A DNA stretch of 64,000 nt from a virus, in the IMG/VR virus record IMGVR_UViG_3300013023_000001, positions 1 through 64,000 of that record. The stretch is one strand, 5' to 3'. Below, piece by piece: positions 1,023 to 17,414 of the stretch (the stretch's first letter is position 1; each line of letters begins with the position of its first letter). A program made the translations under genes and the position numbers. Below the pieces are notes generated by a model. That model was not told the origin of the DNA. It was given only the letters and a program-made list of their open reading frames with translations, and searched no databases.

Positions 1023-1916
1023 TTAATAATGAGAAGGCTCTTCTTCATTGCCAGTAGTTGCTGGATTGTTACCCTCAGCCTGTGCCGCTTCCGCTGCTTT
1101 CTGTGCTGCAATCGCTTGCTGTGCATCAACACGCGCTTTGAGGCGAGTCATAAAGATGTTGATGCGGGTTTCCAATTGTGCCAGTTCTTCTGGTGTCGCT
1201 GTAACCTGAGTATCTGCTTCGAAGCGGCTTAACAGATGAGTGATAGCAGCTACGGCAGGTACGTTTTTAGATTTAGACAAGCGATCTTCGAAGGTGATCA
1301 TCATCTTATCCAATTGTTCTGGATTGATGGTTGTAGTGCGTGAGCCTTCACCTTCGCCAGTAGTCGCGCCGCCAGTACCATCGTTGCGTAACCATTTAAC
1401 ATCGTCGTGCCATTTGAAGATATCGCCTTCATAGACAACGCCAACTTGTTTCAGGGATTTGTCCATACCAACAGACCAATCCATATTTTTAACCATTGTT
1501 TCTTTGCCCTGAGCAAAGTTATCAAACATACCTTCACGCTTGATTACGTTTTCTTTGGTGCGTTTGACTTTTTCGGCCCACTCTTTCTGGGTAACATCTT
1601 TTGGACGCTCACCCATTGCATCAACCAGATCACCAATTACCGTGTAGTGTTGACGGCGGCCTTTGTTTTCCATAGTCAGACCAACATGAGTCAGTGACTG
1701 TAAGAAAGCGATAACAGCGGAATAATCGCGGTAGTTAACAGAAAAGACAGTATCCATTGCCTCTTGTAACAGCGTGAAATCGCCATGAGCGCGGTAATGC
1801 TGTACAGATGACAGGATAGAGGAAGATACAACCGCTTTATAAGCGCCAGCACGAGTTGAGATAGAGCCGATTACTTCACGGATTTTGTCTTGACCGGAGA
1901 TGATTTCTACTTTCAT
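1023..1916 (-). CDS. hypothetical early protein (297 aa)
   Basis: Long ORF with GAGG 8 nt upstream of the ATG and an Ala/Gln-rich helical C-terminus. No family recognised. The three + strand ORFs inside it are judged antisense artefacts. Confidence 0.7.
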   Translation of the reverse strand: MKVEIISGQDKIREVIGSISTRAGAYKAVVSSSILSSVQHYRAHGDFTLLQEAMDTVFSVNYRDYSAVIAFLQSLTHVGLTMENKGRRQHYTVIGDLVDAMGERPKDVTQKEWAEKVKRTKENVIKREGMFDNFAQGKETMVKNMDWSVGMDKSLKQVGVVYEGDIFKWHDDVKWLRNDGTGGATTGEGEGSRTTTINPEQLDKMMITFEDRLSKSKNVPAVAAITHLLSRFEADTQVTATPEELAQLETRINIFMTRLKARVDAQQAIAAQKAAEAAQAEGNNPATTGNEEEPSHY

Positions 1917-2001
1917 TTGATAAACCTCTAAATATTGTTGATTGGATTAGGCGTTAACCTAGTTACTATTGAGTGAGTGAGCAATGTTGCTCATTAAAAA
2001 A

Positions 2002-2301
2002 TTACTTTGTTTTATATCCGTTAATAGCTAACGGCAAGTTATTTAACGCTCTTTTGAATTCCTTTACAAGAGATTCCACACTACCCCGCGTTGTAGGGTT
2101 TACATAAGCCTTGTTTGCAATCTGCATCAAAGCTAAATGCTCTTTGCGATTAGTAACCATATCAATCTGCATCAACAGATTGTTACGATTATTAATGAAA
2201 TTTTTATAAACCACTTCTGGTTTTACGCCATCCTTTTCTAACTGATCAATACAGCTAGACATTAGTTGGCGGAAAGCCTTTACAACTGTTGACTTTTCCA
2301 T
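2002..2301 (-). CDS. hypothetical early protein (99 aa)
   Basis: ORF preceded by CTTAGCAGGGAAATAAA-ATG. The 65-aa ORF at 3557 has the same CTTAGCAGGG context. No motif recognised. Confidence 0.6.
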   Translation of the reverse strand: MEKSTVVKAFRQLMSSCIDQLEKDGVKPEVVYKNFINNRNNLLMQIDMVTNRKEHLALMQIANKAYVNPTTRGSVESLVKEFKRALNNLPLAINGYKTK

Positions 2302-3195
2302 TTTATTTCCCTGCTAAGGTGTGATTGAGTAAGGTAATTCACCATTAACAGCGCGGGTCATAACTCCACACTGTTAACAGGAAAATTATCTCACGCTCAC
2401 ATAATGCTCATCACATTAAGGCGTACAAGATAACCTCAGCAAAACAAAACCTTAAACAACCTGATAGCGCCTCTTCCTTTCAGAGGGCTATTTTTCCGTT
2501 GCTTAAGGGGTTTACGTTTAGGCACACCGTAGAAGCCTTTACGTTATTTCAATTTTCAATCCCCCGTTTAACAAAGGTGATTCTATTTAGTCCAATGAAT
2601 CTCTAAAGCCGCCTATTCTCCGCGCTTTCAGTTCGATTGCGTTCTGGCCTATCACATACTAACAATCTACTTTTACTTTCACTTCAAACCTTCACACCTC
2701 TACCGCGCTCTATTTAGTAAGCGTCTACCGGACTATTATTGACAGGAGAAATTTACAAACCCTTGTCATTTTTACCGAGTTCATTCTGTGAAGTTAAACT
2801 ATCTCTTTAGTCTCAACACTGGATAGAATCTAAAACCTAATTGTTAAACGGGGTACGCCTTGCGGCGCTCGGATTGGTTAATCGAGGCGAGTTGTTACAC
2901 TCTATACGATGATGAGCTAACTAGTAAGCGTTTCATTTTTACTTCACCTTTCGCTTAACATTAGCGGCTGATTCTGTTTAATGCTTCACCGGATAGGCAA
3001 GCAACAGAAACAACCTGTTAGGCGATTAGCTTTTCATTATTACTTTACCCTATCAACAACGCTTGCTTACCCGCTGCACGTTGCCAACCTACTAACAACC
3101 TGTGAGACTATAAAATCGTCTCGCCTGTCGCTTTCGCTAATGAGCTAACCAATCCAAATTGTTAAAGAACGTTAGTTAACGTCTCCGTTAACCTG
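2302..3195 (-). ncRNA. ~890-nt untranslated leader / candidate non-coding RNA downstream of promoter P-a
   Basis: No ORF of 60 aa or more in any frame; only 3-19 codon mini-ORFs. Contains hairpins with GNRA loops when read on the minus strand: GUUAACG-GAGA-CGUUAAC (3175-3192) and CGCC-GCAA-GGCG (2856-2867). A 7-bp hairpin lies at 3102-3124, and repeat copy B at 3040-3095. Confidence 0.3.
3040..3095 (-). repeat. Copy B of the ~50-nt leader element
   Basis: See 905-960. Shared blocks are TGGCAACGTG, AGCAA, CG(C)TTG and ATAGGG in the same order. Confidence 0.5.
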
Positions 3196-3201
3196 TGAAG
3201 C

Positions 3202-3230
3202 ATTATTACAGAACTACCTGATAAATGCAA
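3202..3230 (-). promoter_or_regulatory. sigma70-type early promoter P-a
   Basis: Minus strand: AAAAATAGTG-TTGCAT-N16-TAATAA, or N17-AATAAT with TGn. An A/T-rich block abuts the -35. Confidence 0.55.
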
Positions 3231-3273
3231 CACTATTTTTCAGTCTGAATCCAGTCTGATAAACCAGCGCTTT

Positions 3274-3348
3274 TCAGCGCCAGCTAATCAAGCAATAACA
3301 ACTAATGAAGCCACAAACAATCATGATTGTAATTATTTGAATTATCAT
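3274..3348 (-). CDS. possible 24-aa hydrophobic peptide
   Basis: Not in the ORF track (too short). GAGGG lies 7 nt upstream of the ATG at 3348. Peptide: MIIQIITIMIVCGFISCYCLISWR. The stop is embedded in the GCGCT-GAAA-AGCGC hairpin. Speculative. Confidence 0.25.
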   Translation of the reverse strand: MIIQIITIMIVCGFISCYCLISWR

Positions 3349-3359
3349 AGTGCTACCCT

Positions 3360-3557
3360 CTATTTAAACGCCACGTTCTTTCCGATGACAGCCTTTAAGC
3401 CGCCCCATTCAGCTAACGTTTTAGCCATGCTTGCATTAGTAACTAATTTCCATTCCTTCTGATACTTGCCTTTATCAAAGACCGCACCAGTTTCATGGTC
3501 AATTAGGACTAACCCTAACATAACACGCTTAAGAGTATTTCTTGCCATGATCAACAT
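3360..3557 (-). CDS. hypothetical early protein (65 aa; likely start at Met4, 3548)
   Basis: The only ORF of 60 aa or more in 2302-5321. AGGGGA precedes the ATG at 3548. It lies about 220 nt downstream of promoter P-b. Confidence 0.55.
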   Translation of the reverse strand: MLIMARNTLKRVMLGLVLIDHETGAVFDKGKYQKEWKLVTNASMAKTLAEWGGLKAVIGKNVAFK

Positions 3558-3776
3558 CCCCTGCTAAGTAAGATAGTTTATCAGACCAGACTCAGACCAA
3601 ATTTTTAAAGAACGGTAAAACTAGGGAAGCCGTTACAACACTCGGTCAGTAATCTTTCCACCTCCGAGAAGCTAACACTTCCTCTTACCTATCAGGTACT
3701 TAGCATTTTCACGCTTCCCTGATTTACTCACCTTTAAGTTACTTAGCGTTTCCGCTTCACTTATCGGCTTGAGAAC

Positions 3777-3804
3777 ATCATATCAGACTGTCGTTTTACG
3801 TCAA
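3777..3804 (-). promoter_or_regulatory. sigma70-type early promoter P-b
   Basis: Minus strand: TTGACG-N16-TATGAT with extended -10 (TGATATGAT). Confidence 0.65.
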
Positions 3805-3995
3805 CCTTTATTTCACTCTCGTTTAAACTTTTTGCTAAGTCATTGATTAACAACAACATACTAAGCGCCAATCCGTTTAAACCTCGTTAGCTTGTAACTC
3901 GCTACTATATAAGGTTAACATAACAGCCTGATTTTTAAAGAACACGATTAACCAATCTATCCGGTCAATCTCACAAGTTGCCTTGCTTGAGATAA

Positions 3996-4023
3996 ATAGT
4001 ATCAGAATCAGCTTAAGACGCAA
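3996..4023 (-). promoter_or_regulatory. sigma70-type early promoter P-c
   Basis: Minus strand: ATAGTTG-TTGCGT-N16-TACTAT with extended -10 (TGATACTAT). Confidence 0.55.
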
Positions 4024-4482
4024 CAACTATTTTCACTTATTTTCAAATTATCTTCTAAGTTACTGAAAACAAAAGAAAAATAATCTAAATAAAATCTTCC
4101 ATCTTTCGAACTAAATTACTAAATCATTGATTCACAACGGTTTATCTTATCCAGTGCCAACCTTTGCAGATTGATAGCCAACAATCACAGCTCACAATAG
4201 ATAGAACGCACACACACGTATATAGCTAAGTGCCAACTGTCAACAACTAAAAACCTTTATAAACCAATCACTTAATCTAACCGCTCAATTCTTAACCTAT
4301 TATCTGGTACTTACCATACTAATCAATCAATGTAATAGAGTTAACCTTGTTAAATAATCTAAGAATAATAATTCAATAAACAATAATTACTCTTATAACC
4401 TTTAACTAACTAATAATTTCAGATGTTAATCCTATCCAGTGAATATAATTTCATTAGGAAACAATTACCATTTATACTGTAT

Positions 4483-4511
4483 ATTATATCATATTTAATA
4501 GTAACAGTCAA
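4483..4511 (-). promoter_or_regulatory. sigma70-type early promoter P-d (near consensus)
   Basis: Minus strand: AAATAGTTC-TTGACT-N17-TATAAT with extended -10 (TGATATAAT). Confidence 0.7.
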
Positions 4512-5321
4512 GAACTATTTCAGTAAGAAACAGAAATAATCTTAGTTAGCTAATGATTAACAATGATATCTAAATTTAACAACTATTTAACAGGCATATA
4601 ACTCTCTATTAACTCTTTTAACGTTTTCGTTACACTCAAACAACGCTGAAAGAAAAGGAAAGAATTAGCGTTACTTATCAGTAACTTACAACGACATACA
4701 TTCTCAAGCTATTACAACCTATTGAATAACCTAATCTAATTAAACGTGGGAATCAGCGCTAGCTTGCTAGCTTATCACTCTCTTGTCTCTTACTTCTCAG
4801 CGGATAGGCTATCAGGAATTGCATAACTATTCAGGGGATGTGAATGCTTTCTCAGCGTACTAACCAGCATCGAACACAGTCTAAATAACAATAGTAAAGT
4901 AATAGTAGCGCCTTTCACACTCTTGCCCTCTTGTCAATATAAATACGGGTAATTTCCCACATTAAATAAGATACAACGTATCGCTGATTTTATACTACAT
5001 GAATCAATAGTTTATACGGGATATGTTCGCTGCATAAGTTGTGCTAATAAAGTGCTGAAATAAAGGGCACCTTACTAATGATAGGGGGTAGGGGTGCATA
5101 GGTATGCAATGCTGGTATAGCTGGAGAAAAGTTAAGCCTTAGTATTGACAAATAACCTTCCCTGTGATTCAAGTCTCACGATGAGGACTCCCCCTTTTAC
5201 AGTTTGTCGCGCGGGCCTATACCTCATTCGTCAGATTTTTGAAAATTAATTTCTTTCGTATGACGGTACTATAAAACTATCTAATTGAATGAATAAGATA
5301 TAGGTTCTTATTGGAGATTTT

Positions 5322-5777
5322 ATGGAATACGAAATTACGAGAGAAGGTGAAGTGATTAACAGTCGTGGTAGAAAACTTTCACCTTATTTGACTGGCAAAG
5401 GTTATTTGTATGTATGCATTAATAGGAAGAGTATTTCTGTTCATAGATTAGTAGCTAACGAGTATATACCCAACCCTGACAACCTTCCTTGTGTTAACCA
5501 TAAGGATGGAGTAAAAACAAACAATCATGTAGATAATTTAGAATGGTGTACCTACTCACACAACAGTACGCATTCATATCAAATCGGGTTATCTAAAATT
5601 AAATTAGGACAAGATACTTCTAATGCAGTTCTATCAGAGAACATTGTAAAAGAAATAAAACAAACTTTCGTTAAAGGTAGCAGAACAAATGGGGCAAGCG
5701 CACTTGCTAGAAAATTTAACGTAGGTATTACAACTGTACACGATATTGTGACAGGAAAAACATGGAGACACGTTTAA
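5322..5777 (+). CDS. HNH homing endonuclease
   Basis: NPDNLPCVNHKDGVKTNNHVDNLEWCTYSHN is an HNH motif. The C-terminal ARKFNVGITTVHDIVTGKTW resembles a helix-turn-helix. A clear paralogue lies at 45905..46300. Confidence 0.85.
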   Translation: MEYEITREGEVINSRGRKLSPYLTGKGYLYVCINRKSISVHRLVANEYIPNPDNLPCVNHKDGVKTNNHVDNLEWCTYSHNSTHSYQIGLSKIKLGQDTSNAVLSENIVKEIKQTFVKGSRTNGASALARKFNVGITTVHDIVTGKTWRHV

Positions 5778-6256
5778 TGAGTAATTATGTTGAGAGAATT
5801 AAACTACTGACAGAACTATTTGATGAAGGTCACATCACTGAACAAGAGTTCGGTGAATTGGTAGGTAGTATTCGTGGTGGTGCTGTGAATGAAGCTTATG
5901 ACCAAGTAGGCATTAATAGCGAAGACAAAGTAAGCATTGGTGGTTACGATTTAGTTGTCGAAGGTGATGAACAATGGCTAGAGGAAGTGAATAATCCAAA
6001 CAAGCTAGATGAGTATGAAACTTTCTTTAATAACTCAGGGTTCACACATCATGGCTATCACGATAATAGTAAGAGATACAATAAATGGAAATCGAATAAG
6101 GTCAATGAATGCAATGTTAGATGCGAGGGCGATGAGGTAGTTTGTAATCACCCATTCATATCATTTGAAAACAATGAACCTACTCCAGTGAAAGAACATC
6201 CTGCTTATCCTAAAATCCTTCAAGCTATTAAAGAGGGTAAGATTGTTCTTAGCTGA
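5777..6256 (+). CDS. hypothetical protein (159 aa from the TAATG-coupled start)
   Basis: The ATG at 5777 overlaps the HNH stop (TAATG). Acidic protein, no motif recognised. Confidence 0.6.
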   Translation: MSNYVERIKLLTELFDEGHITEQEFGELVGSIRGGAVNEAYDQVGINSEDKVSIGGYDLVVEGDEQWLEEVNNPNKLDEYETFFNNSGFTHHGYHDNSKRYNKWKSNKVNECNVRCEGDEVVCNHPFISFENNEPTPVKEHPAYPKILQAIKEGKIVLS

Positions 6257-6575
6257 GTAAGAGTACGAATGTTGTGGAGGGGAGAAAGTAGTTAGGCATA
6301 TGTGTCACTGAATGGAGTGAACATTCCCTGATGAAACCTCCCCTTCACGATGTTCATAATCTAGGTGATTCGCTACCTTAAGTGCGGGACGATAAACACT
6401 AGGTGGGCATCAATGACTAATGTCCCCTTCATACTAGAATGCCATTCATAGCTTTAGTTTCCCCTTCTTTCAGAGGAAGGAGCGTAAGCGACACGCCGAA
6501 GACCCCGCGTAGCTGGGGGCGGAGGTGGAACCGGCGCGAAAATATTTATAATGAAGAGAAAGGAGAACTATTAAA

Positions 6576-10960: not shown

Positions 10961-10983
10961 TGAATGAATAAGGAGTATAAAAT

Positions 10984-11202
10984 TTGAAACATGAACAAAA
11001 GGCGGCTTTGGCCGCCATTGATTCTAACGGAAGTCTTTCAGCAGCATTAGAGGCATTAAAAGAAAAAATCTCTAGGGAGATAGTTATTACTCAACCTCAA
11101 GAGAAAATTAAACGCGAAGACTTGTACACGCAATACCAATTGATTGGCAGGCTAAAAGAGGTCATCAAAGCAGCCATTAATGAAGCTGAGGATAGTAACT
11201 GA
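10984..11202 (+). CDS. hypothetical head-module protein (72 aa)
   Basis: TTG start 8 nt after AAGGAG. Its stop overlaps the next start (ATGA-type coupling). Confidence 0.5.
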   Translation: MKHEQKAALAAIDSNGSLSAALEALKEKISREIVITQPQEKIKREDLYTQYQLIGRLKEVIKAAINEAEDSN

Positions 11203-12266
11203 TGCCACAAGATAATTTTGAAATTTTTATGCAACTCGATGATTTGAAACCATCTTTCGAAAAAGATTTAGAATCTTATCGTGCTAGTAAAGAACCAGAG
11301 GTTGTGATTGAAGAAGAGCCAGAAGAATATGCTGATGACGGTGTAGAAGGTTTTGAATCAATTGATGATAACAACCCGGTCTTCGAAGATGAAGAAGGTT
11401 TTGAAGCTTCTGATGAAGACGAATCAGATGAGACAGAAGATGAAACTGAGGAAAATGAATCTGAGGATGAAACCGAAGAGGAAGAGACCGAAGAAGAGTC
11501 AGAAAGTGATGAGTCTGAGGAATCAGAAGAATATGAAGAAGGTGAAGCTGTTGATGTAGATTACGATACAGTTATTACTCTTCCAGACGGTCGTGAGATG
11601 ACCATTGAAGAACTCTCTACTGGCTACATGAATGGTAATGAACTTACTCAGAAGATTGAAGAGTTTAATACTCGTGCTCAAGAATTTGATTCTCGTGCTT
11701 CTAATCTTAAGAATGTTCTTGACCTAGCCCAGCTTGAAGCTGACAGAGTTATTCAAGACTACGAAGGTTTTGATTGGGATACACTTGCTAAGACAGACCC
11801 ACAGGCTTACGTAGAAAATAACAGATTCCTTGAAAGATACAAGGCACGTAAAAACGAACTCGTACAGGCGCAGCAACGCTTACAGCAGGAAGCTGAAACC
11901 AAAGAGCAAGAAGCGTATCGTGCTCGCAGTGTAGAGTGTGTTCAGGTACTCCAGAAGTCAATTCCTAATTGGGGTGAGAACCTCTATCAAGAACTTTTGC
12001 AATATGCAATTGATATTGGTGCATCTGAGGAAGAGATTCTTAAAGAGAACCGTCCTTCGGTATTCATTGCTTTGCACAAAGCTTATCAGTTTGATAAAGG
12101 TGCTCAGCGTGTAGTAGCGAAGATTAAGAAAGTTGGTGCTCCGAAGAAAGTAATGAAGTCGGGTTCCAAACAAGCCAATACTGGCGATAAAAAAGCAGCC
12201 GCCGCTAAGGCGTTTTCAGAGGGTCGTTTGTCTCATCAAGATGCATTTAATCATCTGTTAGACTAA
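11202..12266 (+). CDS. scaffolding protein
   Basis: Lies between portal and capsid. Has an extreme Asp/Glu tract followed by a long helical region. Confidence 0.65.
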   Translation: MPQDNFEIFMQLDDLKPSFEKDLESYRASKEPEVVIEEEPEEYADDGVEGFESIDDNNPVFEDEEGFEASDEDESDETEDETEENESEDETEEEETEEESESDESEESEEYEEGEAVDVDYDTVITLPDGREMTIEELSTGYMNGNELTQKIEEFNTRAQEFDSRASNLKNVLDLAQLEADRVIQDYEGFDWDTLAKTDPQAYVENNRFLERYKARKNELVQAQQRLQQEAETKEQEAYRARSVECVQVLQKSIPNWGENLYQELLQYAIDIGASEEEILKENRPSVFIALHKAYQFDKGAQRVVAKIKKVGAPKKVMKSGSKQANTGDKKAAAAKAFSEGRLSHQDAFNHLLD

Positions 12267-16034: not shown

Positions 16035-17414
16035 ATGATAAGTTTTAAAAGGAATTTTCAATATCCTGTTATTAATTCCAGAAAAATGAGAAACAGCTTT
16101 TTTAGAGATCATGCAGCTAACTCTACTATCGTTAAATTTGGTAATAATTACTTAATGTATTTTAGAGGGATAAATGGAGGTAGTCCTAGCACTGTTGGTG
16201 TTTGGAGTTCTCCAATAAATAATTTTGATGGATTCACTTGGAATACCTCTCCTACAACTAATCCTATACTATCTGCCGGATCTTCGGGGTCTTTTGACGC
16301 TACTGGTGTTTTTGACCCTGTTGCCGTGGTATTTAATAATAAAGTGTATCTTTATTATATGGGAAATTCTTCTTCCAGCTCAATAGGATTAGCGACCTCA
16401 ACAGATGGCTTATCATTCACTAAGCAGGGTGTTGTAGTTACAGGCGGAGGTTCTCCTATAGCTGTTGTAGATACATCAAATGTACTACATCTGTATTACA
16501 CTAAGGGGAGTTCTACTGATGGCTGGTCTTATTATCACAGAAGCTCAACAGATGGGACTACCTTTGGACAAGAGTCTTTAGTCTTTTCTCCATCTAAAGT
16601 TAGTGGGAGTTTTGATCAGATGTCAGTAATAACAGGAAGAATTTTTTATAAATCCCCTTATTACTATTTAGCATACTCTGGTTCTTCCACTCACGATGAT
16701 TATCCAGAAGGAATAGGATTAGCTAGATCTTCTGATCTATTAACATGGGAGAGGTATGAAGGTAATCCAGTTTTACTTAGAAATTCTTGTGGAACTTGGG
16801 ATGAAGGTGGAATATGGAGTCCAGATATTATTGAATATAATGGTCAATTTTTTATGTGGTTTGAGGGAGTAGGGACTAATAGTACAGCAGGAGGATCAAT
16901 ATCAAATACTGCTAGGGATACGCAATATGGCGGATATGATACTAATGCCTTTAGCCAAATATTCACAGCTATAATGTCACCAAGTTCTAACCTATCTGAA
17001 TGGACTTCTAATATTAGTGGTAACTATAAAATTAAAAATAGTCTTACTGGTAAATATCTTTATATAAATTCTGACGGTAAATTATCTAACTCTTCTAATA
17101 ACTCTAGTAAATTCACTTTAAATAAGAAATCCAACGGATTTTACGACATAATAGGGTCTGATGGTGTTAATAAAGCATCTTCTGAGAATAACAGCAGGTC
17201 TTACGGATCTTATATAAAATTTGTAGCTTCCAGTACAGACCAAAGTCAAGACTGGTATCTAACAGAGGTGAGTAAAGGATTTTATCAGATTACAAACAGG
17301 TATAGTGGTATGGTGTTATCTCCAGAGAACGGCTCAGTTTCATCTGGTTCTTTAATAACTCAAAAAACTTTCACCGGATTTCCAAATCAAGTTTGGGAGT
17401 TAATACCTTACTAA
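16035..17414 (+). CDS. beta-propeller glycoside-hydrolase-like protein with C-terminal ricin-type lectin domain (putative depolymerase)
   Basis: Repeated blade-like motifs: GVFDPVAVVFNNKVYLYYMG and GIWSPDIIEYNGQFFMWFEG. The C-terminus has beta-trefoil repeats with QxW (QDW, QVW) and YKIKNSLTGKYL / FYQITNRYSGMVL. Start at 16035 follows GGGGAG. Confidence 0.5.
   Translation: MISFKRNFQYPVINSRKMRNSFFRDHAANSTIVKFGNNYLMYFRGINGGSPSTVGVWSSPINNFDGFTWNTSPTTNPILSAGSSGSFDATGVFDPVAVVFNNKVYLYYMGNSSSSSIGLATSTDGLSFTKQGVVVTGGGSPIAVVDTSNVLHLYYTKGSSTDGWSYYHRSSTDGTTFGQESLVFSPSKVSGSFDQMSVITGRIFYKSPYYYLAYSGSSTHDDYPEGIGLARSSDLLTWERYEGNPVLLRNSCGTWDEGGIWSPDIIEYNGQFFMWFEGVGTNSTAGGSISNTARDTQYGGYDTNAFSQIFTAIMSPSSNLSEWTSNISGNYKIKNSLTGKYLYINSDGKLSNSSNNSSKFTLNKKSNGFYDIIGSDGVNKASSENNSRSYGSYIKFVASSTDQSQDWYLTEVSKGFYQITNRYSGMVLSPENGSVSSGSLITQKTFTGFPNQVWELIPY

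Follow-up and report, generated by a model that had tools for sequence, protein, structure and literature searches.

The stretch of phage DNA analysed here, 64,000 nucleotides (nt) corresponding to positions 1 to 64,000 of the IMG/VR virus record IMGVR_UViG_3300013023_000001 (hereafter the window), raises the question of what is encoded in 3 kb that hold almost no genes. Starting at 5322 the late genes point rightward, and the early genes point leftward from 2301; the region separating the two arms, 2302-5321, was described in an earlier note on this DNA as a coding desert, and the list of open reading frames (ORFs) bears this out, with a single ORF of at least 60 aa in all frames (minus strand, 3360-3557, 65 aa). 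Here we report that the desert contains three boxA elements of the ribosomal RNA type, conserved promoter-like sites and two RNA structures with strong covariation support. Based on these observations we propose, with a probability of about 75%, that the desert controls early transcription from one end of the genome of a phiEco32-like podophage, operating by the mechanism set out below.

The earlier note had pointed to a recurring box, TTTAAAGAAC, with three copies that each lie beside a small hairpin; the copies and their hairpins are indeed there, and what that reading missed is that the box is a boxA, the hairpin-plus-box units being left unexplained. Read on the minus strand, the box is GTTCTTTAA(A/C)A at 3170-3160, 3613-3603 and 3943-3933, and all three copies match exactly the gamma-proteobacterial boxA consensus of the rRNA operons (rrn), GYTCTTTAANA, an RNA element that binds NusB/NusE and nucleates assembly of the rRNA anti-termination complex (PMC5725501). 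This recurrence is well above chance: the 12-mer GYTCTTTAAMAA has 3 matches in the 64 kb, both strands counted, where 0.14 are expected, and none of 100 shuffles reaches 3. In order of transcription, the first unit (3933-3970, minus strand) consists of a hairpin at 3970-3946 followed by boxA1, GTTCTTTAAAA, at 3943-3933; boxA2, also GTTCTTTAAAA, lies at 3603-3613; and the third unit (3160-3193, minus strand) consists of a hairpin at 3193-3174 (z-score -2.75) followed by boxA3, GTTCTTTAACA, at 3170-3160. Two sites reported as terminator-like by the scanner, 3970-3946 and 3193-3174, are these hairpin-plus-boxA units. Every copy has its small hairpin upstream and one predicted promoter shortly before it, and the copies lie on the early-sense strand 25-160 nt past the predicted starts of three of these promoters (P2, P3 and P4, see below). 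We therefore regard the three boxes as rrn-type boxA and as candidate Nus-factor anti-termination sites, at which NusB/NusE would bind by analogy with rrn. A fourth exact match to the consensus, GTTCTTTAATA, is found on the plus strand at 17347-17357 within a late structural gene; 0.73 matches per window are expected by chance.

The same arrangement is seen in relatives of the window phage. The first long early genes (1023-2301, minus strand) have products of 99 aa (2301-2002) and 297 aa (1916-1023), and the 297-aa protein is distantly homologous to SU10 gp120 (BLASTP, 22% identity, E 2e-10). Relatives of the 297-aa protein were absent from phage records and IMG/VR, and homologues came solely from a set of 5.8 billion proteins. 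Ten related loci were compared, two of them (L009 and L010) retrieved from IMG/VR via the terminase and the others from public assemblies via homologues of the 297-aa protein. All ten share one layout, with the terminase arm, a desert of 2.6-3.1 kb, usually an ORF of 57-68 aa, and then a gene of ~100 aa followed by one of ~290 aa, the order of these first early genes being kept throughout. In each of the ten, the early-sense strand of the desert carries three exact boxA matches, no more and no fewer, and over 7 kb the opposite strand has none. A boxA at the place of boxA1 is present in all of them, the third unit is likewise conserved, and boxA position is retained among relatives despite diverged flanks. 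In a promoter scan, most boxA copies of the relatives have a TTGACx-N16-18-TAxxxT promoter 15-160 nt upstream with an A-rich block before it, and most copies in the relatives and SU10 lie, as in the window, 25-160 nt past predicted starts; several copies, including the first one of most relatives, have no promoter above the scan threshold upstream. In the two most distant relatives, L021 (~4743) and L027 (~1845), all three consensus boxA copies precede the small gene, and the leaders are preceded by a variant box, GTTCCTTAACA or GATCTTTAACA.

Four tandem sigma70-type promoters, all firing leftward, had been read in the desert, and they are present as read and conserved in relatives. P1 (4483-4511, minus strand) is TTGACT-N17-TATAAT with an extended TG, the strongest sigma70-type site with a scan score of 11/12; P2 (3996-4023) is TTGCGT-N16-TACTAT with TG; P3 (3777-3804) is TTGACG-N16-TATGAT with TG and scores 10/12; and P4 (3202-3230) is TTGCAT-N16/17-TAATAA(T), all on the minus strand. 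P1 and P3 are the two top-scoring sites of a scan covering 1500-6500, both on the minus strand; P2 and P4 are present in the sequence yet weaker, below the scanner threshold of 9/12. The same scan found 16 promoter-like sites where 14.6 would be expected by chance, which is no excess. With the site count at chance level, support for the four promoters comes from their conservation: P1 is near-identical, spacer included, in 8 phages, P2 has a promoter at the same position in relatives, P3 is conserved, and at the place of P4 the relatives carry TTGACC/T/A-N16-TATAAT or TAGAAT. The A-rich block said to adjoin the -35 at three promoters was found as GAAA(A)ATAGT. We thus predict that P1-P4 are sigma70 early promoters. 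Primer extension has confirmed two sigma70 promoters at the extreme right end of the related phage 7-11 (PMC8948821). The heptamer TGATAGG, noted earlier as recurring at least five times on the minus strand, is not enriched (11 matches against 14.7 expected), and neither TGATAGG nor TGTGATAGG is enriched as a candidate phage promoter motif.

Downstream of boxA2 the RNA is organised around a small-gene cassette. A 22-bp leader-trailer helix pairs 3597-3576, an inverted repeat (I1) that begins 5 nt past boxA2, with 3264-3243, and brackets the 65-aa gene and a 24-aa micro-ORF. Over 10 phages, pairing at its 18 inner pairs reaches 100% of cells, with compensatory double changes at 10 of the 18; when partners are slid by 1-3 columns, pairing falls to 28-41%. 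The outer pairs co-vary too, as read by eye. The 3' arm is immediately preceded by a GC hairpin at 3283-3265 (z-score -3.1), the two together occupying 3243-3283 on the minus strand. Helices of about this length, 22 bp, are of the kind cut by RNase III, and the arrangement copies the leader-trailer helix of rrn; by that analogy RNase III would cleave here. Inside the helix, the 65-aa early gene (3360-3557, minus strand) is conserved at the protein level, has an SD-like (Shine-Dalgarno-like) AGCAGGGGA upstream and its product has no Pfam or PHROG match. The micro-ORF (3274-3348, minus strand), which follows directly with an SD of its own, encodes the hydrophobic peptide MIIQIITIMIVCGFISCYCLISWR; ORF and SD are conserved in L010, L020, L022, L023, L024 and L026 and absent from L009. 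In size and composition the peptide is reminiscent of small membrane peptides or type I toxins.

The larger structure is the leader of the first long early operon. It extends on the minus strand from 3155 to 2302, ~0.85 kb between boxA3 (3170) and the ATG at 2301, and folds into three domains. Domain 1 (3155-2872) begins 4 nt past boxA3, with GGAUUGGUUA/UAACCAAUCC as its closing helix; domain 2 (2853-2562) has a 13-bp closing helix, CCCCGUUUAACAA/UUGUUAAACGGGG, that continues into a ~35-bp stalk; and domain 3 (2426-2329) is a hairpin pair beside the SD region (2320-2309). On an alignment of 8 phages, RNAalifold predicts 154 pairs, with 94.8% of cells in standard pairs compared with 35-45% when partners are slid. 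Seventy pairs are changed on both sides (13-22 in slid controls, 32.7 +/- 3.7 after column shuffling), the covariation score is 0.435 (0.07-0.09 slid), and not one of the observed values is reached in 500 shuffles. The window leader taken alone has a minimum free energy z-score of -5.68, and its main helices are reproduced in the single-sequence fold. At just 41-60% protein identity among the phages, several single-stranded loops do not vary at all, and a covariance model of the domain-1 core built from 8 phages picks up the distant relatives L021 and L027 at E ~1e-7. The leader-trailer helix and the ~850-nt leader are thus both strongly supported by covariation. Of the roles the earlier note had considered for what it took to be long untranslated stretches, that of long regulatory leaders fits this ~850-nt covariation-supported RNA; no conserved ORF or micro-ORF was found in the leader among the relatives; further upstream, the RNA taken to be untranslated contains the two small genes. 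Searched against Rfam 15, the window gave no match at the gathering threshold and, under relaxed settings, only chance-level matches (E >=0.18) in 1900-5400; the leaders of the relatives and of Kuravirus had no Rfam match either.

A counterpart of this RNA is present in Kuravirus, the genus of phiEco32 and SU10. The spacer between SU10 genes 120 and 121 is reported to hold three sigma70 promoters, as in phiEco32 (PMC4281155). We find in it four promoter-plus-boxA units followed by a gene-free 839-nt leader that runs up to gp120. This leader occurs at full length and 75-100% identity in 98 deposited phages; nearly all of the records listed leave it unannotated. Aligned over 7 phages it has 275 predicted pairs, 98% of cells paired (35-46% slid) and 76 pairs with compensatory changes (5-9 slid). 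Position and logic are the same as in the window, with promoter-plus-boxA units, a structured leader and a homologous gene behind it (297-aa protein or gp120). A 19-nt motif, (G/A)UUUAACAAU(U/A)AGGUUU(U)AG (UUUAACAAUWAGGUUU), lies 321 nt past the last boxA in the window and 326 nt past it in SU10, and in both leaders forms the 5' strand of a helix spanning ~270-290 nt. The two differ in that the leaders cannot be aligned save for this motif at equal distance from the last boxA, and in that Kuravirus has five extra genes (121-125) between spacer and genome end, where the window clade has just two small genes inside the array.

Between P3 and boxA2 lies a further RNA element, an irregular hairpin module of ~50 nt (3630-3680, minus strand) with a conserved 18-nt loop, AGGUAGAAGGUUUACUGA. 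It was the sole match when the desert was compared with deposited phages by a more sensitive blastn, megablast against 50,697 phage records having given none. The module is 84-90% identical to unannotated early leaders of unrelated Autographiviridae that infect Klebsiella, Pectobacterium and Dickeya (Drulisvirus, Ningirsuvirus, Phimunavirus); its usual place is between early promoter and boxA, and in several of these leaders it also precedes a perfect boxA. Its inner helix shows compensatory changes. Besides the window, the module was located in L001, L005-L008, L024 and L027. Because it is common to Autographiviridae leaders and optional within its own clade (L024 and L027 have it, L009 and L010 do not), the module is one exchanged between phages. 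It has no Rfam entry and no annotation, and a scan of IMG/VR for it gave nothing.

These elements can be assembled into one mechanism. Host sigma70 RNA polymerase would initiate at P1-P4, with their A-rich upstream blocks and nearby sites matching the consensus for integration host factor (IHF). Transcripts from P2, P3 and P4 would carry a hairpin and then an rrn-type boxA 25-160 nt from their start, and NusB/NusE on boxA, together with NusA, NusG and SuhB, could convert the polymerase into a Rho-resistant, fast and RNA-chaperoning elongation complex, by analogy with rrn and the T7 early operon. So modified, it would cross more than 0.85 kb of untranslated RNA into the early genes. The 5' strand of a long-range helix would emerge directly past boxA2 and again past boxA3, as happens in rrn leaders: the first of these helices, of 22 bp, would close over the cassette of the 65-aa and 24-aa genes, the second would close domain 1 of the three-domain leader, which runs to the SD of the first long early operon, and RNase III would cut the long helices. 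Promoter activity, Nus binding, anti-termination, RNase III processing and the role of the large RNA are in this scheme argued from analogy. As a working guess, the ~0.85-kb RNA acts in cis, as a co-transcriptionally folded platform for processing, stability and translation of the early operon, and release as a stable RNA-protein particle may occur as well.

Several points weigh against this scheme. For the window phage, which promoters are used, where the 5' ends lie and whether polymerase reads through are predictions from sequence. The best of the promoters, P1, is not followed by a boxA. At position 2 the window boxA copies read T (GTTC...), against C in rrn and in most relatives, a variation the consensus permits. 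A boxC-like TGTGTGGG was not found, although a strand of a long-range helix does follow boxA2 and boxA3, and a predicted pairing of boxA/GUAAAGG with the SD region falls in invariant columns, without covariation support. Homology between the window and Kuravirus leaders is not detected by nhmmer or by the covariance model of the domain-1 core, so that the case for one and the same RNA is made by position, architecture and a single short motif. Finally, a literature search for phiEco32 together with boxA found nothing in a body of work that excludes the primary papers (Savalia 2008, Pavlova 2012), which may mention boxA.

The main alternative concerns the role of the RNA: it could act chiefly in trans, being freed at the long helices as a stable RNA or RNA-protein particle that serves as decoy or scaffold for Nus factors, ribosomal proteins, RNases or defence proteins, or as partner of a phage ProQ/FinO-like protein. 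The promoters and boxA copies would then exist mainly for abundant RNA output, as for rRNA. Loops that stay invariant and single-stranded across phages with 41-60% identity are typical of tertiary contacts or protein partners, and the three-domain architecture with its ~35-bp stalk, the rRNA-like production (tandem promoters, boxA, leader-trailer helices), a ProQ-domain protein encoded a few genes downstream in relatives, and the full-length retention of the analogous RNA in 98 Kuravirus genomes all point the same way. Yet there is no terminator between the RNA and the downstream genes, the 3' domain abuts the SD, which fits a cis-acting leader, and no known sponge-type repeat was identified. 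We consider a mainly trans-acting role possible but rather doubtful. In its boldest form, the window leader and its Kuravirus counterpart would represent a new class of large structured phage RNA, made like rRNA (tandem strong promoters, a Nus complex recruited by boxA as folding chaperone, leader-trailer helices for excision) and acting in trans, as RNA-protein particle or decoy, in host takeover, possibly by titrating Nus factors, ribosomal proteins or RNases, by blocking a defence system or by acting with the ProQ-like protein; this we offer tentatively, as a minority view of our own data.

A different role, that of a replication origin activated by transcription, could be assigned to part of the desert, namely the AT-rich P1-P2 stretch, the leader serving as an R-loop primer, or both. 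Strong promoters would activate it, as in the primary origin of T7 or in ColE1. The P1-P2 interval (4030-4476, minus strand; 31% GC) is conserved as DNA and, as a candidate structured RNA, was rejected, its covariation being no higher than in slid controls. It holds one of three IHF-consensus sites, at 4132-4120; the others are at 3836-3848 (minus strand), upstream of P3 and conserved as AATCAATRACTTAG in relatives, and at 5002-5014 (plus strand), where WATCAANNNNTTR is a consensus match only and its core TATTGATTC is conserved in most relatives. The pattern WATCAANNNNTTR has 10 matches in the window against 6.2 expected, which is not significant alone; 3 of the 10 fall in the desert and are conserved. 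In keeping with an origin, the cumulative GC-skew minimum and the lowest GC (31%) fall at 4-5 kb, where both arms diverge, the interval is kept without RNA covariation, and short repeats (D7, D14, D17) accompany the IHF-consensus sites. However, the GC-skew switch coincides with the switch in gene orientation and is little informative, the desert has no DnaA boxes and no iteron family above chance, and the covarying helices and conserved loops of the leader favour a folded RNA over a plain R-loop. An origin here is therefore unlikely in our judgement. Two other conserved DNA elements were seen. The P1-P2 interval includes a 24-mer, TAACAAGGTTAACTCTATTACATT, at 4352-4329 (minus strand), ~125 nt past P1, that L009 and L010 share unchanged with the window and that the others have in nearly identical form. 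At 4911-4950 (minus strand), between the probable terminus and P1, an element of the form ACCCGTATTT..TTGACAA-N14-TGTGAAAGG is present in 10/10 relatives; it has a perfect -35 and no canonical -10 and could be either a non-canonical promoter or a protein-binding site. As a motif, TTGACA-N14-TGTGAWAG does not recur, with a single occurrence in the window.

The physical genome ends had been placed in 4.5-5.3 kb, and homology supports this. A 13-mer, ATGAGGACTCCCC, at 5181-5193 (plus strand) is invariant in all ten relatives and marks a probable direct terminal repeat. It occurs at record positions 153-165 in SU10 and phiEco32, and SU10 has a second copy 28-40 nt from its right end; this places the motif inside the terminal repeat of SU10 and phiEco32. 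Among our loci, copies were located at L003 153-165 and L002 6788-6800. By this homology, the ends of the window phage are probably near 5030-5225, which would put the promoter array at the right end of the virion DNA. Invariant in the clade and in Kuravirus, ATGAGGACTCCCC may belong to a packaging or end-recognition signal. The first late-arm gene (5322-5777, plus strand), an HNH endonuclease (PHROG 59, E 4e-46), adjoins this probable end, upstream of the terminase. Another role suggested for the desert, a T5-like injection-stop or terminal-repeat region serving DNA entry or packaging and not transcription, could draw on this probable repeat at its right edge (~5030-5225) and on early promoters adjoining a genome end, as in T7. 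But terminase, portal and capsid are phiEco32-like, not T5-like; the repeat of SU10 and phiEco32 is short, with the motif within ~200 bp of the ends and not multi-kilobase; and a short repeat cannot account for the 2.7 kb leftward of it, with promoters, boxA, two small genes and a structured RNA. We regard such a role as very improbable. Scarcely credible, finally, is that the 60-aa cut-off has hidden ordinary protein-coding genes in the desert: two small real genes (65 and 24 aa) do exist, but the ~850-nt leader lacks any conserved start codon with a consistent ORF, its indels are not multiples of three, its variation tracks base-pairing and not codon phase, and ORFs of 30-55 aa are no commoner than in any frame.

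The affiliation of the phage is consistent with our preferred reading of the desert as an early control region. PHROG matches were obtained for its large terminase, portal and major head protein, and DNA similarity in the structural arm is limited to phiEco32-like podophages (Kuravirus and relatives, 7-11-like phages and others). The portal of the closest deposited phage is at most 61.5% identical, and the window phage is thus an unsequenced lineage of the phiEco32-like phages. Scans for further family members in IMG/VR and JGI metagenomes gave only the two contigs already in hand, and 16 genome matches were at chance level, with unrelated hosts. A few genes past the leader, the early operons of L020-L028 encode proteins with a ProQ/FinO domain, a DksA/TraR-type zinc finger and a Hydrolase_2 cell-wall hydrolase; the corresponding region of the window phage lies beyond the left window edge. 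The early arm of L020 also carries eight clustered tRNA genes (10981-12123), and a search of the window for tRNA and tmRNA genes found none.

Set beside known systems, neither the promoter cluster nor a lytic phage's use of boxA is new in kind, T7 and the phiEco32 spacer promoters being precedents. In sources open to search, one boxA per promoter in an array and an rrn-like helix around a small-gene cassette are not described, nor, above all, is the large structured leader RNA of either clade, be it in Rfam, in nearly all of the 98 GenBank records or in the open-access literature. New large structured RNAs are, to our knowledge, rare. The gene desert can now be treated as a set of individually testable parts. 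The analogous RNA is found in phiEco32, SU10 and the BASEL Kuravirus isolates, which grow on relatives of E. coli K-12; since full genetics is available for these hosts, including nus, suhB, rnc and rho mutants, the role of the leader RNA is directly testable.

The phage-encoded ornate RNAs GOLLD and ROOL resemble the window leader in being several hundred nt long, multi-domain and defined by covariation. They lie beside tRNA genes, and the window RNA differs from them in having no Rfam match and in being the 5' leader of an operon behind boxA sites. In lambda nut sites, which act with N protein, boxA likewise lies beside a hairpin just past the early promoters and makes host RNA polymerase resistant to termination. 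There, however, boxA comes before boxB, whereas the window has the rrn-like order of hairpin then boxA; the window boxA is of the full rrn type (CTCTTTA) and that of lambda the weaker CGCTCTTA; and the window hairpin loops are not conserved GNRA-like boxB loops.

A further parallel among phages is T7, and a T7 A1-A3-like leading end was one of the roles first suggested for this region. The suggestion gains force from the boxA itself: T7 has an exact rrn-type copy, GCTCTTTAACA, at 813-823, after A1-A3 and before gene 0.3. The T7 boxA is described as an anti-termination element, and mutating it removes the need for gp2, as do A3 down-mutations (Savalia 2010, cited in PMC3709561). Both phages have tandem strong promoters for host RNA polymerase beside a genome end, a boxA in the early transcript, and a long double-stranded helix of the processing type before or around the first genes (RNase III site R0.3 in T7). 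T7 has one boxA for three promoters, whereas in the window three promoters are each followed by a separate hairpin and boxA; the T7 leader is ~100 nt, that of the window ~850 nt and multi-domain; and the phages belong to different families, with late genes transcribed via a phage sigma factor in the window phage and by its own RNA polymerase in T7. Our observations suggest that lytic phages beyond T7 use the host rRNA anti-termination machinery for early transcription.

The leader of the E. coli rrn operons, with tandem P1/P2 and UP elements, boxB-boxA-boxC and a leader-trailer helix cut by RNase III, is also comparable. Both have tandem promoters with A-rich upstream blocks, a hairpin followed by boxA, and a long-range helix whose 5' strand lies a few nt past boxA with its partner 270-310 nt downstream. 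They differ in that no boxC was found in the window and in what is enclosed, a small-gene cassette and a leader in place of rRNA; there is no sequence similarity to rRNA beyond chance. In both cases a large structured RNA is made, and its folding could be helped by a chaperone activity of the kind described for the rrn anti-termination complex (PMC10250234, PMC8632103); an rRNA-like production line for a large phage RNA would bear on that role.

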